A stretch of 64,000 nt of DNA. It comes from Clostridium sp. CAG:557 (GTDB taxonomy: Bacteria; Bacillota; Clostridia; Oscillospirales; Acutalibacteraceae). Positions 1 through 64,000 of the stretch are shown here, piece after piece. Made by a program: the position numbers and the translations under genes. Numbering within the stretch: the first letter of the stretch is position 1; every line of letters begins with the position of its first letter. The stretch spans positions 10,665-74,664 of the forward strand of contig FR883868.1 of NCBI GenBank assembly GCA_000435275.1, in the 5' to 3' direction. The notes below the pieces were generated by a model. It had not been told where the DNA came from and searched no databases. It saw only the letters and a list, made by a program, of their open reading frames with translations.

Positions 1-213
1 ATTTTACAAAAAATACAGTCCATAAAACTACCTCCATAACAAAATTTTAATATTTCCTAAAATCTTTGGCTGGCACTGGCCAAAAATATTTAATAAATGG
101 AATATTTTTGTAAGTTTGCAATAAAATTGCAAACTTACCCATGCACCAAAAAATATATTTTTGGGTGCATGGGGCCAGTGCCTTATCGGGCCACATCAAA
201 ACTTTTCAAAATA

Positions 214-2844
214 CTAATTTGCAAAAGGAATAACCAGCTCATGAACTTTGCCTAACGCCAAATCAATTTTAGAAACATCTTTTATACCTGCCATCGCCAT
301 ATCTTTGCGGCCACCACCATTGCCACCAGTTAGCTTCGCAACTTCTTTGACTAAAGCTCCAGCATTTACGCCATTTTCTAGTGCTATTTTTCCCGCACTT
401 ATAATAATATTCGATTTTTCTGAGCCAATATTAGCCAACACAACAACGACATTTTGAAACCTAGATTTCAAATCGTCGCAAATAAGCTTCAACATGTCAT
501 TATCAAAATTTTCAACTTTAGATACAATTATTTTCAACGCACCAACATCTTTAGCAGAATTGATCAAAGTCTCAACTTTATGCGACGCCATTTCTAAATT
601 TAATTTATTAATTGTTTTTTCGCTGTCTTTAAGCCTATCAACTAAATGCTTGCACTCATTAACCAATTCTTCTCTTTGCTTAGTTTTCAGCACTTTTTGG
701 CAGTCATTAATTAGGTTTAATTCATCATAAAGAAGATTTAAAACTCCCATGGATGTTACTGCTTCGATTCTTCTTACGCCCGACGCCACAGAGCATTCTG
801 AAATAATTTTAAAAACACCTAACTGAGCAGTATTATGAACATGCGTTCCACCGCAAAGTTCTGTAGAAAAATCTCCTACCTTTACAACGCGAACAACTTT
901 CCCATACTTTTCACCAAATAAAGCCATTGCTCCAATTTTTTTTGCATCCGAAAGTGCCATTTCTGTAACATTAACCGGTTCAGATAATAAAATTTCATCA
1001 TTAATTAACTTCTCAATTTCTTTCAAGTCATCCGCAGAAAGTGCCGAAAAATGAGTAAAATCAAAGCGTAATCTGTTCTCATCAACAAGCTGGCCCGCCT
1101 GCTCAACGTGTTTGCCTAAAACTTTTCTTAACGCTGCTTGTAAAAGGTGGGCTGCAGTATGGTTCCTCATAATTTTATTTCTCTTCGCCTCATTAACGTT
1201 AGCAGTAACAGTGTCCCCAACTTTTAACATCCCAGTTTTGACCTCAGCTAAATGCAAATAAGCCCCAGACGCATTTTTTACTGTATCCAAAATCTCAATT
1301 TCAGCATCGTCTGATGTCAATAATCCCGAATCTCCAGCTTGGCCGCCCCCCAGTGCATAAAAAGGTGATTTTTCTAAAATTATTTCAACCTTATCTCCTA
1401 TCACTGTAAAATCGACAAATTTGTCATCTTTAATTATTTTTAAAACATTTGTTCGGATCTCTAGTTTATCATAACCCACAAAATTTGTTGCTTTAACACC
1501 AGAAAAATCCAAATTTTCGGTTGCCCAAGCCTGTGCTTTTGCATAAGTCCTAGCTGCACGGGCTCTATTTTTTTGCTCCAAAAGCAGCTCATTAAATTTG
1601 TTTTCATCAACAGTCATGCCACGCTCCGCCAAAATCTCTTTTGTCAGATCGATAGGAAATCCAAAAGTATCATTAAGTTTAAATGCAATTTCTCCAGGTA
1701 AAATTGAACCTTTTTTCTTATCAATCTCATTGTTTAAAAGTTCTAATCCCTGGTCAATTGTTTTTACAAAATTTTCTTCTTCAACATTTATTAATTTTTT
1801 AATAAAGCTTTCTTTTTGTCGCAATTCTGGATAAGCTTTTTCGTTTTCTTTGATGACTGTTTCGCAAACCTTTGACAAAAATGTACCTTCTATTCCCAAA
1901 AGTCTTCCATGTCTAGCTGCACGGCGCAATAAACGTCTTAAAACGTACCCTCTGCCCTCATTTGACGGCATAACTCCATCGCTAATCATAAAAGTAACGC
2001 TTCTAATATGATCTGTAATTACTCTCAAAGAAACATCTTTTTTAGCATCTTCTCCATATTTTACACCAGAAATTTTGCAAACATGACTCATTATATTTTT
2101 GACCGTATCCACAAGGAATAAATTGTCAACGCCCTGCATAATGCAAGCCAATCGTTCTAGACCCATTCCAGTATCTATATTTTTTCGGTCAAGATTGGAA
2201 TAATTATTTTTGCCGTCATTTTCAAACTGAGTAAATACTAAATTCCAAAACTCTATGTATCTGTCACAATCGCAACCAACTTTACAATTTGGCGAACCAC
2301 AACCATATTCTTCGCCCCTGTCAAAATAAATCTCTGAACAAGGGCCACAAGGGCCAGAACCATGTTCCCAAAAATTATCTTCTTTACCCAGACGAACAAT
2401 TTTAGACGGGTCTACACCAATTTTTTTCGTCCAAATTTCAAATGCTTCATCGTCATCTTCATAAATAGAAACCCATAGTCTATCAACCGGCAACTCTAAA
2501 ACTTTCGTGCAAAATTCCCATGCCCAAGCTGTTGCTTCATTTTTAAAATAATCTCCGAATGAAAAATTGCCAAGCATTTCAAAAAATGTACCATGTCGCG
2601 CAGTAATTCCAACACACTCAATATCAGGAGTTCTAATACATTTCTGGCACGTTGTAACTCTTTTTCGAGGCGGGGTAACTTCCCCTGTAAAATATTTTTT
2701 CATTGGCGCCATTCCAGAATTTATTAGCAATAAGCTATCGTCATTTTCTGGAATCAAAGAAAAACTCTCTAACTTTAAGTGCCCTTTAGATTCAAAAAAT
2801 GACATAAATTTTTCTCTCAATTCGTTTAAACCTGTCCACTTCAT
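214..2844 (-). CDS. alaS: alanyl-tRNA synthetase
   Basis: 877-aa ORF with class II aaRS AlaRS architecture and full-length similarity to AlaRS. ATG at 2844 is preceded by GGAAG. The ORF-track start at 2859 is a TTG further upstream. Confidence 0.95.
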   Translation of the reverse strand: MKWTGLNELREKFMSFFESKGHLKLESFSLIPENDDSLLLINSGMAPMKKYFTGEVTPPRKRVTTCQKCIRTPDIECVGITARHGTFFEMLGNFSFGDYFKNEATAWAWEFCTKVLELPVDRLWVSIYEDDDEAFEIWTKKIGVDPSKIVRLGKEDNFWEHGSGPCGPCSEIYFDRGEEYGCGSPNCKVGCDCDRYIEFWNLVFTQFENDGKNNYSNLDRKNIDTGMGLERLACIMQGVDNLFLVDTVKNIMSHVCKISGVKYGEDAKKDVSLRVITDHIRSVTFMISDGVMPSNEGRGYVLRRLLRRAARHGRLLGIEGTFLSKVCETVIKENEKAYPELRQKESFIKKLINVEEENFVKTIDQGLELLNNEIDKKKGSILPGEIAFKLNDTFGFPIDLTKEILAERGMTVDENKFNELLLEQKNRARAARTYAKAQAWATENLDFSGVKATNFVGYDKLEIRTNVLKIIKDDKFVDFTVIGDKVEIILEKSPFYALGGGQAGDSGLLTSDDAEIEILDTVKNASGAYLHLAEVKTGMLKVGDTVTANVNEAKRNKIMRNHTAAHLLQAALRKVLGKHVEQAGQLVDENRLRFDFTHFSALSADDLKEIEKLINDEILLSEPVNVTEMALSDAKKIGAMALFGEKYGKVVRVVKVGDFSTELCGGTHVHNTAQLGVFKIISECSVASGVRRIEAVTSMGVLNLLYDELNLINDCQKVLKTKQREELVNECKHLVDRLKDSEKTINKLNLEMASHKVETLINSAKDVGALKIIVSKVENFDNDMLKLICDDLKSRFQNVVVVLANIGSEKSNIIISAGKIALENGVNAGALVKEVAKLTGGNGGGRKDMAMAGIKDVSKIDLALGKVHELVIPFAN

Positions 2845-2924
2845 ATAAATCACTTCCAAAAATAAATAAACTCTAGAATATTTGCTACAAAAGCAAAATT
2901 AATTCATAAAATATTCTGATTTAG

Positions 2925-2953
2925 ATTATACCTTCGCTCAAATAAAAAGTCAA
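2925..2953 (-). promoter_or_regulatory. sigma-A type promoter for alaS (TTGACT-17-TATAAT on minus strand)
   Basis: rc of 2948-2953 = TTGACT and rc of 2925-2930 = TATAAT with a 17-nt spacer. The leader to the alaS ATG is only ~75 nt, too short for a T-box. Confidence 0.55.
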
Positions 2954-3014
2954 TTCAGCGCATAATTCAATGTATATTTACAGTTTTTACAAACATAAAA
3001 TTAAGTTGATATAC

Positions 3015-3044
3015 TTGACATTCTTAACAAAAAATTGGTATAAT
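3015..3044 (+). promoter_or_regulatory. strong sigma-A promoter (TTGACA-18-TGgTATAAT) driving the remA-gmk-rpoZ operon
   Basis: TTGACA at 3015-3020 and extended -10 TGGTATAAT at 3036-3044, read directly from the sequence. It is divergent from the alaS promoter. Confidence 0.65.
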
Positions 3045-3082
3045 TTAAGAAATTTATTTTTTCGCACAGACTTTTGCTCATC

Positions 3083-3190
3083 CGCAGTGCGCCCCCCGGA
3101 ATAAACACTAAAAAATATTGTTTATTCCGGTCTGCAACTGCTTTAAAGTTGCAGACGCAGTGCATTGAAAATGTACTGCGGGGGCGCTTC
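3083..3190 (+). promoter_or_regulatory. highly structured 5' leader RNA upstream of remA (three adjacent hairpins enclosed by a GC stem)
   Basis: Perfect 12-bp hairpin 3096-3107/3119-3130. A 9-bp hairpin 3131-3139/3147-3155. A third hairpin 3156-3164/3172-3180. The closing stem GCGCCCCC 3090-3097 pairs with GGGGGCGC 3180-3187. A direct repeat CGCAGTGC (3083-3090 and 3156-3163) allows alternative pairing. No U-tract follows. Confidence 0.4.
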
Positions 3191-3236
3191 TAAGGCAAGT
3201 TCACTCTTTATGTCAGCGAAAAAGGGAGAAATCTTC

Positions 3237-3512
3237 ATGAAATTTATTAATGTTGGCTTTGGAAATATGGTATCTTCAGCAAGAATTGTTACCATCGTAT
3301 GTCCAGATGCTGCTCCGATTAAGCGCGTAATAACCGATGCCAGAAATAAAAACGAGCTAATTGACGCAACTTGTGGAAGAAGAACCCGAGCCGTTATCGT
3401 TACTGACAGCAGACTTATCATACTTTCAGCTCTACAGCCAGAAACAATTTCCAATAGGCTCAAAGGTGACTTCTCAAATGATGAAGGAGATTTAGATTTA
3501 TATGAGCAATAA
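3237..3512 (+). CDS. remA: RemA/YlzA (DUF370) family regulator
   Basis: [12 protein letters not shown]...PIKR motif typical of RemA/YlzA. RBS AAAGGGAGA lies 7 nt upstream of ATG 3237. It sits immediately upstream of gmk as in Bacillus. The ORF-track start at 3165 was rejected. Confidence 0.85.
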
Positions 3513-4104
3513 AGGTTTACTTGTTGTTTTATCCGGTCCGTCTGGTTCTGGAAAAGATACAATTCTTGAACGGCTTGTTAATCTTGACAAAAACATTGTT
3601 AAGTCAATATCCGCTACAACTAGACCTTGCAGAATTGGCGAAGTTGATGGAAAAGATTACTTTTTTATTTCTGAACAGGATTTTTGTAACGCTATATCTG
3701 ATGAAAAATTGCTTGAATATACCAACTACTGTGGAAATTATTATGGAACCCTAAAAAATTTAGTAGAAGATTTACAAAATAATCAAAAAGATGTAATCTT
3801 AAAAATAGAAGTCGACGGAGCTAAACAAATTAAAGAAAAATGCCCTGACTCCTTAAGAATTTTTATATTGCCTCCATCTATGGACGACTTAAAAGATAGA
3901 CTATCTAAACGCGGAACTGAAACACCCGAAAATTTAGAAAAACGTTTGAATCGAGCCAAAGACGAAATAAAATTTTCGTCGGAATATGATTACATAGTCA
4001 TAAACGATGAAGTCGATAAATGTGCTCAAAATATATACTCAATTATAAATGCCGAAAAGTTTAAACTGCATAGAATGAAAAATATTATTAATGAGGTGCT
4101 TTAA
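3502..4104 (+). CDS. gmk: guanylate kinase
   Basis: P-loop GPSGSGKDT and guanylate kinase fold signature. Conserved remA-gmk-rpoZ order. Confidence 0.93.
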
Positions 4105-4105
4105 A

Positions 4106-4309
4106 ATGCAAAAAATATCAATTGATGAAATGTTATCCGGTAAAAAAAGTAGATATTCTCTTGTTATCGGCATAGCAAAACGTGCCAGGGAAATCGCCAG
4201 CAATGCCGAACAAAATGGCAATATTTTGACTGAAAAGCCTGTTAATTTAGCCATAAACGATTTTAAAGAGCATAAATATGAGCTTTTTGAACCTCAAGTC
4301 AACGACTAA
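4106..4309 (+). CDS. rpoZ: DNA-directed RNA polymerase subunit omega
   Basis: 67-aa product MQKISIDEMLSGKKSRYSLVIGIAKRAREI matches RpoZ. GAGGTG RBS at 4093-4098. Confidence 0.88.
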   Translation: MQKISIDEMLSGKKSRYSLVIGIAKRAREIASNAEQNGNILTEKPVNLAINDFKEHKYELFEPQVND

Positions 4310-4337
4310 TTGCCGATTTTACTTCTAAACTACTATT

Positions 4338-6800
4338 ATGAATGAAAAATTTATTGTAAAAGTTGCCGTTGAACATATCGTTTATCACCTTGACAAGTTT
4401 TATGACTATATTGTCCCAGAAGAATTTTGTCAAAACTTGGATGTTGGCTGTAGAGTTTTGGTCCCTTTTGGTGCTGGTAATAAAAAACGTCAAGGAATCG
4501 TTTTGCAGACGGATTTTTCTTCAGATACCTCTAAGTTAAAATCAGTTTTTGCAGTACTGGATGCCGTTCCAATTCTGAACGATGAAATGCTAGAACTTGC
4601 TAAATTCATAAAGAAAAAATATTTTTGTACAATTTATGACGCAGTCAAGCTTATGATTCCCGCCGGCATGAATTTTAAATTACATGAACAGTTTAAACTT
4701 TGTGATAATTTTAACGAATCTTTAGTCTTAAACTGCAACAAAATGGAAAAAAATTTGATTTCATATTTAAAAAATTTTAATGGTTGGGCTTCTAAGGAAG
4801 TTTTGTTGAATAATTTCGGGGCAACAACTCTAAACTGTTTAAAAAATTTAGAAAACAATTCAATAATTCAAAAAAGAGAACTCCAAAAAAGAAATTTATC
4901 TGACTCAAAAGTTAAAATGGTTAAATTAAAAGAACCTTTTGTTTCAATTTGTAATGTTAAAATTACGCCAAAACAAAAAATTATATATGACATTCTTACT
5001 CAAAATTTAAGTGGAATTTCTTTAAAAGAATTATTATACTTTTCTGGTTTTAGTGTTTCTGTTGTGGATAATTTAGTAAAAAAATGTATCGCAGAATATT
5101 TTGAAGATAAAGCTTACAGAGACCCATATAAAAATGTAAAATTTTCATGCTCTTCCAAAAAAATTATTTTGAATGACGAACAAAAGGCTGCTTATAATTC
5201 TATTTTAGAATTATACAAAACTAAAAAATATTGCGTTTCACTCCTTTATGGAATAACGGGTAGCGGAAAAACCTCTGTTTTTATGCGCTTAATCGAAGAT
5301 GTTATTACTGACGGTAGCAATGTTATTGTTATGGTGCCAGAAATTGCTTTAACACCTCAAATGGTTACAATCTTTAAAAGCAAATTTTTTGACAAAGTCG
5401 CAGTGTTTCACAGTGGGCTGTCTCAGGCTGAACGAATGGATGAATACAAACGTGTTAAAGACGGCTTAGTTAATGTTGCTGTTGGCACCCGCTCCGCTGT
5501 TTTTGCGCCATTTGAAAAAATTGGGCTTATTATTATGGATGAAGAGCAAGAATCCAGCTACAAATCCGATGCTACTCCTAGATTTAACGCACGTGAAGTT
5601 GCTAAATTTAGATGTGCATATCATAAAAGTTTACTTCTTTTGTCTTCTGCCACACCTTCCGTTGAAACTTTCTTTTGGGCTAAAAATAAAAAATATAGCA
5701 TAAATATTTTAAAAAATAGATATGCTGGTGCAAAGTTACCTGCAGTCTCCATCGTAGATATGAATAAAGAACAAGAAAGTGGAAATTTTAGTGCTTTTAG
5801 TTCCAAACTAACTGATAAACTGACTCAAAATCTGAATAATGGCAATCAATCTATTTTATTACTCAACAGAAGAGGTTATCACACTTTAGTTTCTTGCAAA
5901 AGTTGCGGACAGGTTTTAATGTGTCCAAATTGTAGCATTGCTTTAACGCTTCACTCTGCAAACAAAAAATTAATGTGCCATTATTGCGGATTTTCTACTG
6001 ATATTACTGATAAATGTCCAAATTGCCATAAGCATCAGTTAAAATATATTGGTGTGGGAACTCAAAAAGTTGAAGAAGATTTGAAAAAATTTTTCCCTGA
6101 AGCTCGTATCTTGCGCATGGACACCGATTCGATGATGTCTAAATTTTCTTATGAAAACAAGTTAAGAGATTTTGCATACGGTAAATATGATATTATGTTG
6201 GGAACTCAAATGGTTGCTAAAGGGTTGGATTTTCCCAACGTAACCCTTGTTGGTGTTTTGTCAGCGGATCAGTCCCTATACAGCGGTGATTTCAAAAGTT
6301 ATGAACGTACTTTTTCTTTGCTTACACAAGTTGTTGGCAGAGCTGGAAGAAATCAACATAACGGATTTGCAGTTATTCAAACTTTTACGCCAGAAAATCC
6401 TATTATCAATTTGGCTGCCAAGCAAGATTATGATTCTTTTTATGCTGATGAGATAATTTTAAGAAAAGCTCTGTTGTATCCGCCTTTTGCAAAACTTTGC
6501 GTCATCGGATTTGTTGGTGAAAAAGAATTTAATGTAATGAATGCAGCAAAATTTTTCTTTGAAATACTTAAAGATTTAATAAAAACCAATTATTTTACCT
6601 TAACTGTTCGAATTTTAGGTCCTTCTCCTGCGCAAATTTTTAAAGTTAATGGTAAATTTCGGTATAAGATAATTATAAAATTTAAAGATGAAAAAATTTT
6701 TAGAAACTTTATCTCTGATGCTTTAATTAAATTCGGTAATTGTAAAAAATTTACCGGCATTTCCACTTTCGTCGATTTGGAACCGGATTCAATTTTGTAA
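4338..6800 (+). CDS. priA: primosomal protein N' (replication restart helicase)
   Basis: Walker A GITGSGKT, DEEQ box, CxxC...CxxC zinc-binding cysteines (CKSCGQVLMCPNC...CHYCG...CPNC) and a C-terminal helicase domain. Confidence 0.93.
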   Translation: MNEKFIVKVAVEHIVYHLDKFYDYIVPEEFCQNLDVGCRVLVPFGAGNKKRQGIVLQTDFSSDTSKLKSVFAVLDAVPILNDEMLELAKFIKKKYFCTIYDAVKLMIPAGMNFKLHEQFKLCDNFNESLVLNCNKMEKNLISYLKNFNGWASKEVLLNNFGATTLNCLKNLENNSIIQKRELQKRNLSDSKVKMVKLKEPFVSICNVKITPKQKIIYDILTQNLSGISLKELLYFSGFSVSVVDNLVKKCIAEYFEDKAYRDPYKNVKFSCSSKKIILNDEQKAAYNSILELYKTKKYCVSLLYGITGSGKTSVFMRLIEDVITDGSNVIVMVPEIALTPQMVTIFKSKFFDKVAVFHSGLSQAERMDEYKRVKDGLVNVAVGTRSAVFAPFEKIGLIIMDEEQESSYKSDATPRFNAREVAKFRCAYHKSLLLLSSATPSVETFFWAKNKKYSINILKNRYAGAKLPAVSIVDMNKEQESGNFSAFSSKLTDKLTQNLNNGNQSILLLNRRGYHTLVSCKSCGQVLMCPNCSIALTLHSANKKLMCHYCGFSTDITDKCPNCHKHQLKYIGVGTQKVEEDLKKFFPEARILRMDTDSMMSKFSYENKLRDFAYGKYDIMLGTQMVAKGLDFPNVTLVGVLSADQSLYSGDFKSYERTFSLLTQVVGRAGRNQHNGFAVIQTFTPENPIINLAAKQDYDSFYADEIILRKALLYPPFAKLCVIGFVGEKEFNVMNAAKFFFEILKDLIKTNYFTLTVRILGPSPAQIFKVNGKFRYKIIIKFKDEKIFRNFISDALIKFGNCKKFTGISTFVDLEPDSIL

Positions 6801-6821
6801 AATCTATGGAGGATGTTTATC

Positions 6822-7295
6822 ATGGCTATAAGAAATGTTGTTTTAGAAGGAGACCCTATTTTATATAAAAAATGTCGGATTGTCAAAAACTTTGATGCTC
6901 GGCTTGCTCAGCTTATTGATGACATGATTGAAACTATGCAATTGAAAAACGGTGTTGGACTGGCTGCTTCTCAAGTTGGCATTCTAAAAAGAGTTGTAGT
7001 TATACAAACCAATCTTGAAGAAAAACCTCTCGAATTAGTAAATCCTCAAATTACCGAAGTTTCTGGAAATCAGGAGGAAGTTGAGGGATGCTTGTCTTGT
7101 CCCGGTGAGTACGGAATTACTAAACGTCCTATGAAAGTCAAAGTTAAGGCTTTTGACCGCTTCGGAGCTGAGCATTTTTATGATGGCGAAGCTCTACTTG
7201 CTCGTGCTTTTTGTCATGAAATTGACCACCTGGATGGCATTTTATTCAAAAATCATGTTATCCGTATGCTGGATGATTCTGAATTGGAAAGCTGA
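6822..7295 (+). CDS. def: peptide deformylase
   Basis: Conserved motifs GVGLAASQVG, EGCLSCPG and HEIDHLDG. ATG 6822 lies 8 nt after GGAGGA. Confidence 0.93.
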   Translation: MAIRNVVLEGDPILYKKCRIVKNFDARLAQLIDDMIETMQLKNGVGLAASQVGILKRVVVIQTNLEEKPLELVNPQITEVSGNQEEVEGCLSCPGEYGITKRPMKVKVKAFDRFGAEHFYDGEALLARAFCHEIDHLDGILFKNHVIRMLDDSELES

Positions 7296-7300
7296 TTTTT

Positions 7301-7423
7301 GGGCACCGCCAGAGCCAACGCTATGCGTTAGCTCTGGCAAATAAAAAAATATTCTTTTGCTTTTGTTTTATGGTAAAATTTTTTAATTTGCCCAATGCAT
7401 CAAAGGATGCATTAGGCGGTGCC
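7301..7423. repeat. GC-rich structured intergenic element with terminal inverted repeats GGGCACCGCC / GGCGGTGCC (copy 1)
   Basis: 9-10 bp perfect terminal complementarity (7301-7310 vs 7415-7423). It encloses hairpin CCAGAGC...GCTCTGG (7309-7337), which is followed by a U-rich tract and acts as a likely def terminator. It also encloses hairpin AATGCATC...GATGCATT (7394-7413). A related element is at 40781-40895. Confidence 0.45.
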
Positions 7424-8403: not shown

Positions 8404-9111
8404 ATGTACGGACTTTATTACTTCGATTACTCTTATTTTTTATTTATGCTACCAGCGCTGATACTCTCTCTTTATGCACAAATTAAAGTAAGCAGCACTT
8501 TTGCTAAGTATTCTAAGATAAAAAATTCGAATGGGCTCACTGGATCAGAAGCTGCTTACAAAGTTTTAGCGCAAAATGGAGTCACAAACGTTGCGGTCGA
8601 ACATATTTCTGGAAGTCTAAACGACCATTTTGACCCTCAAACTAATATAATTCGGTTGTCTGACTCCGTCTATTCTTCAAATTCTGTTGCGGCTGTTGGT
8701 GTCGCCGCTCATGAAGCCGGCCATGCAGTTCAGTATGCAAATAATTACGCTCCTATGAAGTTTAGAAGAGTTTTAGTTCCTATCACTAATATCGGTTCAA
8801 CTTTGTCTATACCTTTGATTTTTATTGGCTTATTGCTTCCAATACAATATGATTTTATCGTTAATATTGGAATCGCTCTTTTTAGTTTTGCTGTACTTTT
8901 TCAACTGGTTACTTTGCCTGTCGAATTCGACGCTAGTAGGCGTGCAATTACAACTTTGGAACAGAGTGGTACCCTTTATGACGAAGAACTTATTGGTGCA
9001 AAAAAAGTGCTTAGTGCTGCGGCTATGACTTATTTAGCTGCTACCTTTTCGGCAGTAATGTCTCTTTTTAGGCTAATTTTAATTGCCGGAAATAGACGCG
9101 GTCGAGATTAA
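8404..9111 (+). CDS. membrane zinc metallopeptidase (Zn_peptidase_2 / HEXXH family)
   Basis: HEAGH motif and multiple predicted transmembrane helices. The family is commonly found near fmt. Confidence 0.7.
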   Translation: MYGLYYFDYSYFLFMLPALILSLYAQIKVSSTFAKYSKIKNSNGLTGSEAAYKVLAQNGVTNVAVEHISGSLNDHFDPQTNIIRLSDSVYSSNSVAAVGVAAHEAGHAVQYANNYAPMKFRRVLVPITNIGSTLSIPLIFIGLLLPIQYDFIVNIGIALFSFAVLFQLVTLPVEFDASRRAITTLEQSGTLYDEELIGAKKVLSAAAMTYLAATFSAVMSLFRLILIAGNRRGRD

Positions 9112-59616: not shown

Positions 59617-60042
59617 GTGAATAAAATGTATTCTATAACCATTTTTAGCTCGCAAACTGTCGACGGACAAACTTGTAAATCTAAAATTACTGTGCCGTGC
59701 AAGTTTAATTTTAAAAATAATCTTGCTCTGATTTCCTACGATGAAATTGTCGAAAACAAAAAATTCTCTTCAAATGTTCAAATCTATGGCACAGGTAAAA
59801 TAACTATTTCTCGGAAAGGAACTCAATCATATAAATTTCTTTTTGAGAAAAATAAACGGCATATTTGCACTTACTTTACAGAGTTTGGAAATATTAAAAT
59901 TGGTGTTTTTACTCACGAAGTCAGTTGCTGTTTCGAAAAAAATTCCTGTAAAATCGTATTAATTTATTCACTCGACACAAATAATACACATTTAAGCAAA
60001 AATAAGGTCATTATCAATGTTAAGGAGGATAACTATGTCTAA
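59617..60042 (+). CDS. DUF1934 (YwiB-like beta-barrel) protein
   Basis: ~140 aa. A gene of this family characteristically lies immediately upstream of argS in Firmicutes. Overlaps the argS start. Confidence 0.7.
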   Translation: MNKMYSITIFSSQTVDGQTCKSKITVPCKFNFKNNLALISYDEIVENKKFSSNVQIYGTGKITISRKGTQSYKFLFEKNKRHICTYFTEFGNIKIGVFTHEVSCCFEKNSCKIVLIYSLDTNNTHLSKNKVIINVKEDNYV

Positions 60043-61732
60043 AATCGTATTAAAAACCATTGACGACCTAAAGGAAATGCTTCATAGCGCCATTATGTAT
60101 GCTATTAAAAAAGAGGACTTGCCTCGTATTAATGAAAATATAAAGGTAAATATTGAAGTTCCTGCAGACCACAAAAACGGCGATTTTTCTTCTAATGTCG
60201 CTATGGTGTATGCTAAAAATTTTAAAATGGCTCCACTTCAAATCGCAAAAATTATATGCAATAATTTGAGTCTAGACCACACTATGTTCGAACGTTTTGA
60301 AATTGCAGGTCCTGGATTTATCAATTTTTTCTTATCGAAAGAGTTTTTTGCTTCGATTATAAATGATATTTTGTTACTTAAAGAAAATTATGGTCGTTCA
60401 GACTTTGGTCAAAATAAAAAAGTTATGGTAGAATTTGTGTCTGCAAATCCTACAGGCCCAATGCACATGGGAAATGCTCGCGGTGGAGCTTTGGGGGATT
60501 GTCTGGCAGCTGTCCTCGATGTTGCCGGTTACAATGTAAAAAGAGAATTTTACATCAACGACGCAGGCAATCAGATAGATAAATTTGGCGTTTCACTTGA
60601 AACCAGATATCTACAAATTTTTGACGGCGAAGAAAATCATACTTTGCCTGAAGATAGCTATCACGGCGAGGATATAAAAGATTTGGCACAAGAATTCGCA
60701 CTTATAAACGGCGATACTTACTTAAGTGTCGACTCAGAAATTAGAAAAAAAGCGTTAATTGACTTCTCTTTACCTAAAAATATAAATAAAATGAAGTCAG
60801 ATTTAGAAAAATATAGAATAACTTTTGACAGGTGGTTTCACGAAATAGATTTGCATAACGACGGCGAAATATATGAAACTATCGAAATTTTGAAAAACAA
60901 CGGCATGACTTATGAGTTAGACGGTGCATTATGGTATAAAGCAACCGATTTTGGTGCCGAAAAAGATGAAGTTTTAGTGCGTAAAAATGGTAATCCAACT
61001 TACTTTGCCGCCGATATTGCTTATCACAGGAATAAATTCGTAAAGCGCGGATTTGACATCTGTATCGATATCTGGGGCGCAGACCATCACGGTCACGTCG
61101 CCAGAATGAAAGGCGCTATGAATGCCATCGGGCTCGATGAAAACAAGCTTGACGTTATTTTAATGCAGCTAGTTAAACTCGTTAAAGACGGCCAAATTGT
61201 GCGCATGAGTAAGCGAACCGGCAAGGCTATTCAGCTTTCCGACTTGCTGGATGAAGTTTCCGTAGACGCCGCCAGATTTATTTTTAATATGCGTGAAGCC
61301 AACTCTCAGATGGACTTTGACCTTGACCTCGCTGTTAAAGAAGATGCGCAAAATCCGGTTTATTACGTTCAATATGCTCATGCCAGAATTTGCAGCATTT
61401 TAAAAGCGCTTGAAAAAGAAAATATTAATCCAAAAGCTTGTTCCGCTGAAGAATTATTTTTGCTGCGCGAGCCGGAGGAAAAAGAGTTGATTCGACATCT
61501 TTCTATGTACACCAGCGAAATAATCGAGGCTGCCAAAACTTATGACCCTGCTAGAATCACTCGCTATGTTATTACTTTGGCAACGTTATTTCACAAGTTT
61601 TACAATTCTTGTCGAGTTAAATGCAGTGACGAACACCTTATGTTCGCTCGAATTAATCTTTGTCTGTGTGTGAAAATTGTCATTAGCAATATTTTAAATA
61701 TGTTTAAAATTAATGTTCCAGAAAACATGTAA
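60035..61732 (+). CDS. argS: arginyl-tRNA synthetase
   Basis: Class I motifs: HIGH-like (ANPTGPMHMGNARG), KMSK variant (MSKRTG) and a DALR anticodon-binding domain. ATG 60035 follows AGGAGG. Confidence 0.93.
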   Translation: MSKIVLKTIDDLKEMLHSAIMYAIKKEDLPRINENIKVNIEVPADHKNGDFSSNVAMVYAKNFKMAPLQIAKIICNNLSLDHTMFERFEIAGPGFINFFLSKEFFASIINDILLLKENYGRSDFGQNKKVMVEFVSANPTGPMHMGNARGGALGDCLAAVLDVAGYNVKREFYINDAGNQIDKFGVSLETRYLQIFDGEENHTLPEDSYHGEDIKDLAQEFALINGDTYLSVDSEIRKKALIDFSLPKNINKMKSDLEKYRITFDRWFHEIDLHNDGEIYETIEILKNNGMTYELDGALWYKATDFGAEKDEVLVRKNGNPTYFAADIAYHRNKFVKRGFDICIDIWGADHHGHVARMKGAMNAIGLDENKLDVILMQLVKLVKDGQIVRMSKRTGKAIQLSDLLDEVSVDAARFIFNMREANSQMDFDLDLAVKEDAQNPVYYVQYAHARICSILKALEKENINPKACSAEELFLLREPEEKELIRHLSMYTSEIIEAAKTYDPARITRYVITLATLFHKFYNSCRVKCSDEHLMFARINLCLCVKIVISNILNMFKINVPENM

Positions 61733-61741
61733 AATTCTAAA

Positions 61742-61773
61742 AAGCCTCTTAAAAATTTAAGAGGCTTTTTTTA
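61742..61773 (+). terminator. rho-independent terminator after argS
   Basis: Stem AAGCCTCTT/AAGAGGCTT followed by TTTTTTT. Confidence 0.75.
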
Positions 61774-61831
61774 TGAAAATTATAATTATAATTTTAAGCA
61801 AAACACATTAAAAAATTTTTTTGCGTACTTT

Positions 61832-62299
61832 TTAAACTGTTTTTATGTCTATACCATATTTATTTAACCAAAAATCAAGTTGAATTATATATGCCATAAT
61901 CTGTGCTGCTCCCATCAGCTGCCCATACCATGGTGAAGATATCTCCTCTGGATGTTTCATAACTTCATGCACACCATCATGGTTTAAAATTTGACTCAAT
62001 AACGAGCTTTCATTTTTTAAAATTTCATTAACTTTTTTACTAACTAATTTCATATAAACCGGATTATGCGTCTTGGGATATGGACTCTTTTTTCTAAATA
62101 CAATTTGATTTGGTAAAATTCCTTTCATCGCTTCCCTCAAAATTCCTTTTTCTCTCCCTTGATAATTCTTTATTTCCCATGGCATATTGTAAGCATATTC
62201 AACTATTCTATAGTCGCAAAACGGCACTCTGACTTCCAAACCGTTATACATGCTCATTCTATCTTTTCTGTCAAGCAAAAACACAAAAGAAAAATATGC
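61832..62299 (-). pseudogene. asnB: 3'-terminal fragment of a glutamine-hydrolysing asparagine synthetase (AsnB/AsnO family), truncated by an integrated element
   Basis: 150-155 codons matching only the C-terminal Asn_synthase region (LLDRKDRMSMYNGLEVRVPFCD...LPNQIVFRKK). The N-terminal ~400 aa, including the glutamine amidotransferase domain, are absent. The reading frame is open up to the recombinase stop codon at 62300-62302. Confidence 0.75.
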
Positions 62300-63802
62300 T
62301 TATTTGTAGACGATATCTAACCTATCATCGTATATAAGAACCTTTTTGATAAAGGTATTTGCAATTAATTTTTTATCATCAAAAGATAAGTTATCCCAAT
62401 CGGTCAAGGTTGCTCGTATAACATCGTTAGATATATCTTCAGAATTTTTATTTTTAATTATATTAAGTTGACCTTGTATTGTATTTCGCTGTTGTTCTAA
62501 TTGTTCAACTTTTTCATTAATATATTTCATGACGTTCTCATTAGCCATAGAAATTTTATTAATTAAATTTTCTATTTCATCCTGAACTTTTTTTAACTGA
62601 ATTTTCAATTTGTTTTTTTCTTTTTCAAATTTCATGTTCCTTTCTATTTTTGTAAATTCAAAATTTTCGATATAGCGAATTAAATCATGTTTGACACTTG
62701 TCTCTATATCATCAAATGTGATTGTTTTTTTTCGTTCAAAACAAACCTTACTTTTCCTTCCTCCACAATTAATATAGCGTTTTCCATTTATTTGACCATT
62801 TACAACTGATACACCTAAACCACAATATCCACACTTTGTTAAACCAGTTAGCCATGTATGTGAACCTTTACCGCTGTTGCTGATTGGTTTATTTTTATCT
62901 AGCTCATATTGTACTTCAAGCCATAAATCAGCATCTATAAATCCTTCATGCAGGTTCATTTGGACAATTTCACCGTCATATGTTGAAAATTTGGCTTTGG
63001 TTTTTCCTTCTCGTTTTGAATACACAGTGCACCCATATAAACCCACAAAATCATCTATAGATTGGTTAATTTTAGCTCCTCTACTTTCAAGATATGTGTA
63101 AACATCAGCATTTGCACGAACATAAACAGGATTTCTTAAAATACGTCTTACAGATACGTTTTGAAAATTTTTGTCTCTGTTTGTTTTGTATCCCTTTTTA
63201 TTAAGCTGTTTAACAATGTCGCCTAAACTTTTAATCTTAGCATATTCTTCATACATAAACTTGACAATTTCACTTTGGCATAAGTCAGCTTCAAGAATAT
63301 GAGTATTGATATTGTCAATGATTCTAGGCACTTTTTTATAACCAAACGGTGCAACTCCTGCAAGAAATAAACCCTTTTTCCCACGTTCATAAAAATTATC
63401 TGTAACTCGTTTTTTTATCATGTTTCTTTCAAGCTCTGCAAAAACCATAATTATTTGTAAAGTAGCTTTTCCCATTGCTGTACTTGTATCAAACTGTTCG
63501 CTGCATGATTCAAATTCAACACTATGCTTTTCAAAGTCGCTATAAATGTCAATAAAGTCTTTCAATGATCTACTTATTCTATCTACTTTATAAACAATAA
63601 CTTTTGCAATATTTCCTTTTTCAATATCTTTTAGTAATCTAACAAAACCCGGTCTTTTAGTATTTGCTCCTGAATATCCTTTGTCTTTATAAACTTTAAA
63701 ATCAGTATTTTTAAAAAGTCGTTTTTTGCAGCACTCCTCTTGCTGTTCAATACTTATACTATCCTTTTTGTCTATTGATTGTCTGCAATAAATAGCTATC
63801 AT
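62300..63802 (-). CDS. large serine recombinase (resolvase/invertase-type catalytic domain + recombinase domain + zinc ribbon + coiled coil)
   Basis: N-terminal catalytic serine context (IYCRQSIDKKDSIS; RISR). Recombinase domain. CxxC...CxxC zinc ribbon (CGYCG...CGGRKSKVC). Coiled-coil C-terminus. 500 aa. Confidence 0.9.
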   Translation of the reverse strand: MIAIYCRQSIDKKDSISIEQQEECCKKRLFKNTDFKVYKDKGYSGANTKRPGFVRLLKDIEKGNIAKVIVYKVDRISRSLKDFIDIYSDFEKHSVEFESCSEQFDTSTAMGKATLQIIMVFAELERNMIKKRVTDNFYERGKKGLFLAGVAPFGYKKVPRIIDNINTHILEADLCQSEIVKFMYEEYAKIKSLGDIVKQLNKKGYKTNRDKNFQNVSVRRILRNPVYVRANADVYTYLESRGAKINQSIDDFVGLYGCTVYSKREGKTKAKFSTYDGEIVQMNLHEGFIDADLWLEVQYELDKNKPISNSGKGSHTWLTGLTKCGYCGLGVSVVNGQINGKRYINCGGRKSKVCFERKKTITFDDIETSVKHDLIRYIENFEFTKIERNMKFEKEKNKLKIQLKKVQDEIENLINKISMANENVMKYINEKVEQLEQQRNTIQGQLNIIKNKNSEDISNDVIRATLTDWDNLSFDDKKLIANTFIKKVLIYDDRLDIVYK

Positions 63803-63879
63803 TTTAAGTACACATCCTTTTTCTTTGATACATTATATTATATCACATCTGAATGCAAACACCAATATTACCTTGTCAT

Positions 63880-64000
63880 TTTTTTATATTTTCATAGATT
63901 TTTAAACAAGATTTTGTTATTGACTCTTGTATTGAGCGTTTTGTGTCTTCACTATTATAATACGGCACATAACTTCTAACTTTAAATCCTAATTTGCCTA
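63880..64000 (-). CDS. partial ORF (C-terminus only) of an element-encoded protein of unknown function
   Basis: Open frame from the window edge ending ...GKLGFKVRSYVPYYNSEDTKRSIQESITKSCLKIYENIKK*. The 5' part lies outside the window. Confidence 0.3.

Follow-up and report, generated by a model that had tools for sequence, protein, structure and literature searches.

Phages with serine integrases commonly target conserved coding sequences without any developmental role. TP901-1, phiC31, Bxb1 (in groEL1) and the Listeria phages A118 and phi10403S (in comK) all reside inside host genes, and the Listeria comK prophage is an example of active lysogeny. The prophage SPbeta, which has a large serine recombinase (LSR), SprA, at one end, splits the spore-former gene spsM, and its precise excision restores the reading frame. 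Excision of SPbeta in the mother cell and the sporulation sigma control of its recombination directionality factor (RDF), SprB, were shown experimentally (PMC5499854). The non-phage element gin lies in gerE of Bacillus cereus, encodes GirC and GirX and has a 9-bp core and a 42-aa RDF (PMC5595907), and skin lies in sigK; with vfbin, these are the sporulation-specific gene-intervening elements. Here we describe a 64,000-nucleotide stretch of the genome of Clostridium sp. CAG:557 (assigned to Acutalibacteraceae in another source; contig FR883868.1, positions 10,665 to 74,664; hereafter the window), at one end of which the 3' part of the asparagine synthetase gene asnB directly adjoins an LSR gene. 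Our analysis indicates that this end of the window is very probably the attR of a temperate phage integrated in the asnB coding sequence of this human-gut, spore-forming Clostridium. A plain prophage disruption, which an earlier annotation of the same DNA (the original prediction) had listed as the alternative to a developmentally excised element, is therefore the best-supported reading.

The asnB fragment (asparagine synthase, glutamine-hydrolysing) occupies 61832..62279 on the minus strand and runs from the third base of codon 466 to codon 614 and the stop, so that the final 148 codons are the window's share of the gene. The corresponding open reading frame (ORF) was called at 61832-62284 (minus strand) as 150 aa from a GTG, with the frame open to 62299. 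The GTG falls in phage-derived sequence. In a profile search the 150-aa ORF matched Pfam Asn_synthase at profile positions 222-353/354, the C-terminal third, with an E-value of 2e-32, confirming that the window holds the C-terminal ~150 aa of an AsnB/AsnO-type protein. Using tblastn, the fragment was found to be 100% identical to residues 467-614 of a full-length AsnB from the same species. No second asnB-like sequence was found elsewhere in the 64-kb window, and the remainder of asnB thus lies outside it, as had been proposed.

The adjoining gene, at 62300..63802 on the minus strand, encodes a 500-aa LSR of the phage integrase type. Resolvase (PF00239, residues 2-144, E 2.6e-35), Recombinase (PF07508, E 4.8e-20) and Zn_ribbon_recom (PF13408, E 6.5e-07) domains were identified. 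In an alignment of 16 LSR relatives, R7 and S9 of the N-terminal Y-x-R-x-S stretch were invariant, and S9 is presumably the catalytic serine. The TAA stop of the LSR gene lies in the asnB frame, five codons 5' of the fragment. The original prediction had noted this contiguity correctly. At related junctions the same relation holds in 6 of 10 cases, in three independent groups, and fails in the other 4, and we therefore attribute it to chance.

The uninterrupted site was found in other assemblies of the species. A search with the asnB fragment returned two 210-aa proteins that continue upstream as AsnB sequence (...WFMQTLLDRKDRM...), on contigs L020 and L021. In these contigs and in L115-117 the gene order is glnS, a 188-aa gene, asnB and argS, and the element is absent. 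Identity between the window and L020 ends at 62279, which is the true junction and lies within about 20 bp of the range in which it had been predicted (62285-62305). The 5' half of the gene and the second att site were also recovered from other assemblies. A search with full-length AsnB identified P0142, a 535-aa protein named asparagine synthetase [Clostridium sp. CAG:557], which consists of AsnB residues 1-469 (100% identical) followed by a 66-residue foreign tail. When the two halves are joined they give P0241, a 614-aa protein encoded on 29 contigs, some longer than 150 kb, that run through the site without interruption. P0241 scores 502 bits against NCBIfam TIGR01536 (cutoff 267), and the intact gene has GATase_6/7 and Asn_synthase domains. 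The interruption is thus precise, and excision would restore the intact ORF. With both junctions, the empty site and the shared core in hand, the proposal that asnB is split by an integrated LSR-bearing element is upheld.

Alignment of the two asnB halves to the full-length gene located the site of exchange. A three-way comparison of attL (L022), attB (L020) and attR (the window) revealed a common 9-bp core, TTTGCTTGA, at 62271..62279 on the minus strand. The attP, rebuilt from the phage sides of attR in the window and attL in L022, is 44 bp long and has perfect 17-bp inverted arms, TTTTCTTTTGTGTTTTT and AAAAACACAAAAGAAAA, around GCTTGATGAT. The first of these arms lies at 62277..62293 on the minus strand, and the LSR stop codon is 6 nt away from it. 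Across six attL/attR pairs of elements in other species, TGA was the only sequence shared at this position, and GA was the dyad centre in two reconstructed attP sites. The crossover dinucleotide is therefore most likely GA at 62272-62271, the first two bases of the Asp469 codon (Asp/Glu469 across the elements compared). Short att sites with dyad symmetry, a central dinucleotide and hybrid attL/attR flanks, as found here, characterise serine integrases, and the att anatomy is, judged from these alignments, classical for such an enzyme.

The insertion is polymorphic. For at least five asnB allele backgrounds there is an intact form of 614 aa as well as a split form of 535 aa, and the AsnB residues of the two forms are identical. 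The intact and split forms are P0241 (29 contigs) and P0142 (84 contigs), P0242 (190) and P0255 (44), P0246 (17) and P0243 (75), P0244 (98) and P0256 (43), and P0258 (4) and P0257 (36). Since identical alleles are present in both states, the element must have entered or left the site repeatedly and recently. The asnB insertion is a reversible polymorphism.

Within the window, the right-hand end of the prophage occupies 62280..64000, is non-identical to the empty-site contig L020 beyond 62279 and has a G+C content of 29%, compared to 34% for the whole window. Longer contigs carry phage genes beyond the window end, in agreement with the expectation that the element continues past 64000. At the left end (contigs L022-L029), P0142 is followed by small ORFs and by genes for a Sak-like annealing protein, RusA, a DnaD-like loader and a DnaB-like helicase. 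At the right end (L001 and L002) are genes for an endolysin, Avd, a reverse transcriptase, a 996-aa YDG/MBG protein and a sigma-like 130-aa protein, followed by a 57-aa ORF and the LSR. All genes of the element are co-directional with asnB, and the integrase gene is at the right end against attR. With replication, recombination, lysis and integrase genes at its two ends, the element is very probably a temperate phage. The cargo beside the LSR module varies between samples (L001, L010 and L011), which points to mosaic relatives that share one integration module. The order argS, asnB fragment, LSR, element DNA was seen in every contig read. In the assembly collection, 610 blocks list the exact LSR protein and 453 list the exact 150-aa asnB fragment; most contigs with the exact LSR stem from metagenome assemblies, of which at least some are labelled human gut.

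Two further features of the phage and its kin were observed. Genes of a diversity-generating retroelement are present in the prophage (L001, 1413-6051), namely Avd (PF22296, phrog_3206) and the reverse transcriptase (phrog_1423, E 4e-127), with the 996-aa YDG/MBG-domain gene between them on the opposite strand. Template and variable repeats were looked for in the 7.6 kb available, and no repeat of 40 bp or more, whether direct or inverted, was present. A sibling phage, the IMG/VR viral contig L198 (IMGVR_UViG_3300029718_000231), has the same sigma-like gene and early module in positions 1-7019 at 86-91% nucleotide identity, together with a different, 531-aa LSR followed by a region that resembles the 3' end of a tRNA gene. 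Its integrase, attP and early genes are contiguous, which agrees with the circular map inferred for the asnB phage. By sequence comparison, L198 illustrates the swapping of integration modules among phages that are alike in other respects.

Related elements are found in asnB in other Clostridia. Among the matches to the C-terminal fragment, the best 120 are short proteins without exception (137-254 aa) and come from many taxa, and several of the 14 that were retrieved start exactly at the junction with a similar phage-arm peptide (..FSF.FLLDRKDRM). LSR relatives were aligned and the alignment was used to scan one genome per species. Of the approximately 18 loci with an LSR of 44% identity or more, 14 are flanked by asnB fragments, whereas the more distant loci never are, and this LSR clade is therefore specific for asnB. 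The junctions of the related elements lie at the same asnB codon. One relative (L220-222), with an LSR 86% identical to that of the window, is a whole prophage with a BppU tail protein, XkdX and a GH25 endolysin, in the asnB of a different species, where this gene lies beside sigA and dnaG. The phage in L034 is inserted the other way round. Compact 5-10 kb islands have an LSR of this clade as well, together with cargo genes for BspA-type leucine-rich repeat (LRR) surface proteins, for a flavoprotein whose end resembles rubredoxin, for an L,D-transpeptidase-like protein or for a small resolvase. The LSRs of L220 and the window share 86% identity, compared to only 70% for the C-terminal parts of their AsnB proteins, and the integration module has therefore crossed species boundaries. 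In L220, a gene for a 190-aa SpoIIM-domain (PF01944) protein was seen between the lysis and regulatory genes (3645-4217, minus strand).

A second integration site was observed in asnB about 90 codons upstream, at the motif ..SGE(G/C)ADE|IFGGYPW... In L223 (146-2828), a 236-aa asnB C-terminal fragment that starts from this site lies beside a different 531-aa LSR and a 60-aa ORF. Several fragments of 236-254 aa match the second-site length; among those retrieved, P0026 starts at the site and P0114 about nine residues upstream. In L042 (5700-6500), a prophage end with an endolysin gene and an HTH regulator abuts the second site, so that asnB is interrupted twice in that genome and its N-terminal 375 codons are no longer adjacent. 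The sibling phage L198 was considered as a user of the second site and was rejected, as its LSR shares only 24% identity with the LSR found there and its attP region resembles the 3' end of a tRNA.

To describe selection on the split gene we used two related genome pairs in which both members bear the element. In the pair L042/L043, the asnB C-terminal fragment has a dS of 0.41 and a dN/dS of 0.015, and the remaining N-terminal piece has a dN/dS of 0.045. The LSR of this pair has a dS of 0.29 and a dN/dS of 0.14, and the flanking host genes have dS values of 0.21-0.38 and dN/dS values of 0.04-0.16. In the pair L050/L052, the 486-codon asnB N-terminal fragment has a dS of 0.53 and a dN/dS of 0.085, with a dS of 0.53 for the LSR and of 0.44-0.49 for host genes. 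No internal stops were present in any asnB fragment examined. Together with the low dN/dS, this indicates that the split halves are not decaying. The purifying selection would fit equally well a turnover of the element so rapid that the gene is intact for most of the history of each lineage, or regulated excision, by which a split gene would stay in use.

A small ORF lies directly 5' of the LSR gene. Its 3' part, 40 codons and the stop, is at 63876..64000 on the minus strand, with the start beyond the window end, and the translated window end corresponds to a 57-aa gene at L001 7357-7530. Small ORFs of 40-108 aa occupy this position in about 15 related asnB-targeting elements, and many of them overlap the LSR ATG by 4 nt. 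Further examples are at L042 9861-10004, L043 8398-8541, L044 9879-10004 and L050 9855-10004. A shared motif, GFKV..Y.P.LSEEEK...IT..ML.I, was recognised by eye, and searches of Pfam, PHROGs and NCBIfam returned no match. The 57-aa ORF is a candidate RDF or LSR partner. Looking for an excisionase or RDF in the element, as had been suggested, was thus successful in part: a conserved small ORF was found 5' of the LSR gene, and it stands as a candidate with no family match. In L040, L042 and L043, an upstream stretch, ATACGATAGT or ATACGATTA, is complementary to the small-ORF start region, ACTATCGTAT or TAATCGTAT, and a change in one is matched by a change in the other. The two stretches may accordingly form a hairpin that hides the small-ORF ribosome-binding site.

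Under the prophage interpretation, the 500-aa LSR would have recombined a near-palindromic 44-bp attP with an attB in the conserved WFMQTLL-D-RKDRM stretch of asnB. Exchange would take place at the GA dinucleotide in the Asp469 codon, within the 9 bp of shared sequence. asnB would thereby be split into the gene of a 535-aa product, made up of 469 AsnB residues and a 66-residue phage-encoded tail, and a promoterless 145-codon 3' remnant. Excision would need the LSR and a directionality factor, possibly the conserved small ORF 5' of the LSR gene, and would be precise, restoring asnB. Several observations weigh against this interpretation. No contig spans the element in this species, as the assemblies break 0.2-8 kb inside each end, and phage structural genes (BppU and XkdX) were seen only in the relative with the 86%-identical LSR. 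An exact search of IMG/VR and JGI metagenome contigs with the reconstructed attP gave no match, so that the free phage is a form we infer rather than observe. No close LSR relatives were found in IMG/VR, and the best integrase matches among GenBank phages, TP901-1 and others, are only about 28-30% identical to the LSR. Strong purifying selection on the split halves (dN/dS 0.015-0.085 in the two pairs) is unlike that of a long-lived dead gene and, if the element is an ordinary prophage, must stem from its frequent gain and loss; such turnover is directly seen in the CAG:557 alleles. Lysogens are presumably without this AsnB activity, because the C-terminal part carries synthetase-site residues in the E. 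coli AsnB structure.

The asnB phage has several features in common with the TP901-1, phiC31, Bxb1 and A118 phages. These include the same set of Resolvase, Recombinase and zinc ribbon domains, an integrase gene that abuts attP, short dyad att sites with a central crossover dinucleotide, insertion in a coding sequence, and replication and lysis modules. In contrast to TP901-1-type phages, its LSR clade is also found on 5-10 kb non-phage cargo islands, and its LSR is distant in sequence from theirs. Codon 469 of asnB is not described as an attB in the searchable literature. Nor did we find a report there that asnB serves as an integrase target or houses an intervening element; the one paper found to combine these topics deals with asparagine synthetase genes as mobile-element cargo. 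The likeness to SPbeta in spsM is that a complete- and active-looking prophage with an LSR at one end splits a gene of a spore-former and that precise excision restores the frame. Excision of SPbeta during sporulation was demonstrated by experiment, whereas the asnB element is known from sequence. In addition, asnB encodes a metabolic or cell-wall amidotransferase, for which a sporulation link is known only in the B. subtilis paralogue. The islands L030, L039, L042 and L043, each with an LSR, a small ORF and cargo, are closer to gin in gerE and skin in sigK. Like gin, they are non-phage elements in a coding sequence with a short shared core. The element in the window differs from gin and skin in being, very probably, a full phage and not a remnant, and the RDF role of its small ORF is only a candidate one. 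The cargo of the islands (LRR proteins, flavoprotein, L,D-transpeptidase-like gene) looks like ordinary island cargo. Mechanistically, the asnB element is very probably a standard serine-integrase prophage inside a gene. What is new is the asnB codon 469 target site, the LSR clade shared by phages and islands, the small ORF and the second LSR target in the gene.

The original prediction favoured a developmental element. Such an element would be excised by the LSR and a directionality factor in the mother cell during sporulation, rebuilding asnB for a mother-cell function, while the forespore keeps it, as with skin in sigK, SPbeta in spsM and gin in gerE. We consider this unlikely. The host has sporulation genes, as the window encodes YabP, YabQ, SpoVAC and a SpoVB/MurJ-like protein, and in this respect the spore-former context that had been proposed is correct. 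The element encodes an LSR and splits asnB precisely and reversibly. The premise that asnO is linked to sporulation in Bacillus also holds: in B. subtilis, asnO depends on sigma-E in the mother cell, and cultures in which it is inactivated are asporogenous (PMC12575378), which by analogy would suit a sporulation-restored asnB. The relation of the present gene to asnO, as opposed to the meso-diaminopimelate (mDAP) amidotransferase AsnB (PMC5485061, PMC8554201), may be one of analogy only; B. subtilis AsnB is such an mDAP amidotransferase (PMC5485061), and in both Bacillus and Listeria peptidoglycan is a target of AsnB-type enzymes (PMC5485061, PMC8554201). The islands of 5-6 kb keep an intact LSR and small ORF with no other mobility gene recognised and may be likened to the non-phage gin with its 42-aa GirX (PMC5595907). 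Split asnB has a dN/dS of 0.015-0.085 at a dS of 0.3-0.5, and the dS of the LSR matches that of host genes, as for a gene in use. This purifying selection is equally explained by the frequent turnover seen in this species, and the integration module also moves between species. A conserved sigma-E/sigma-K type promoter was not seen by eye 5' of the small ORF/LSR operon in 16 elements, a weak point against sporulation control, and a site upstream of asnB, which lies in AT-rich DNA and conforms to a sigma-K-like as well as to a sigma-A-like pattern, is uninformative. Two empty-site contigs with a frameshifted asnB suggest that the gene is dispensable, and a second prophage lies in the same gene further upstream in one genome. 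A broader version, in which the LSR elements in asnB, phages and 5-kb islands alike, are conditionally excised intervening elements across gut and rumen Oscillospirales-type Clostridia, seems to us doubtful but conceivable. It is with similar doubt that we regard its two components, that excision in the mother cell or under another condition keeps asnB functional and that the small ORF would be the directionality factor. Conditional excision would explain the purifying selection, the matching dS of element and host genes, and the retention of the LSR and small ORF by the islands. If excision were developmental, the few known sporulation gene rearrangements would be joined by one in a metabolic or cell-wall gene and in uncultured gut Clostridia.

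A switch by active lysogeny, independent of sporulation, would have the prophage excise without lysis, turn AsnB on for mDAP amidation or asparagine supply, and re-integrate. It draws on the reversible and precise split, on identical host alleles in both states, on the purifying selection on the split halves and on the role of AsnB-type enzymes in peptidoglycan modification (PMC5485061, PMC8554201), with asnB located near ddl, murI, VanY and M23 peptidase genes. All of these observations are equally explained by ordinary lysogenisation and curing, and no condition or regulator was identified, making such a switch quite improbable. That the 150-aa ORF is instead a relic of an old, decayed pseudogene, with a single att site and an unrelated recombinase, is scarcely credible. 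The window contains no more of the gene than its C-terminal quarter, and no Shine-Dalgarno-like sequence was seen by eye directly 5' of the GTG, as a relic would lead one to expect. However, the opposite end of the element carries the N-terminal half and a matching core. The fragment shows 100% identity to an intact allele and adjoins the LSR in every contig read, and the exact joined protein, P0241, exists in non-lysogens. The second att site and the identical intact alleles lead us to reject the pseudogene, which had been named as the finding that would overturn a split gene.

The prophage interpretation has several implications. The asnB codon 469 target is strongly conserved, the LSR clade belongs to abundant gut and rumen Clostridia, and its att sites can be written out exactly; the clade thus offers new integrase/att pairs, along with a candidate small protein as partner. 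In metagenome-assembled genomes of this common species, assemblies break inside the element and asnB fragments are annotated as separate genes, which affects the calling of prophages and islands. Hosts with a split asnB, a form judged at least as frequent as the intact one among the contigs counted for this species, are presumably without this amidotransferase, which could change their asparagine requirement or peptidoglycan amidation.

Sequence features of asnB itself were also seen in the empty-site contigs. In two independent contigs, L020 (about 8571-8577) and, at the same place, L021, asnB has an A7 run where A8 is expected from the lysogens and the intact alleles. The A7 run frameshifts the gene into overlapping ORFs of 415 aa and 210 aa. 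It forms an A_AAA_AAA heptamer, at which a -1 slip would restore normal AsnB. Inactivation by a genuine mutation, phase variation at the tract or an error of assembly could each account for it, and, taken at face value, the frameshift suggests that loss of the gene is tolerable. The asnB leader (L115 2376-3000, equivalent to L020 about 6700-7335) contains about 550 nt of non-coding sequence. A strong terminator-like hairpin, GGACGTCACAATAATACTTGTGACGTC, followed by T8, lies about 20 nt before the asnB start codon and looks like a possible attenuator. A search for a T-box or riboswitch in the leader gave only a sub-threshold Rfam match over the hairpin, to the Streptococcus small RNA SpF39 (43 bits, threshold 60).

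Among the host genes, ddl and murI lie near asnB, and VanY and M23 peptidase genes are found upstream in longer contigs. One LSR 41% identical to that of the window is on a contig (L066, CAVIFG010000077.1) from a bin labelled Escherichia coli, which is probably mis-binned. On the chromosomal side of the junction, 3' of asnB and convergent with it, the ORF list places the host gene argS at 60017..61732 on the plus strand. This flank, with Pfam arginyl-tRNA synthetase domains, is present in all related contigs, with or without the element. Between the convergent argS and asnB genes, at 61745-61775 in the window, is a hairpin with A/T runs on both sides (aaaaagcctcttaaaaatttaagaggcttttttt), which is probably a bidirectional terminator.

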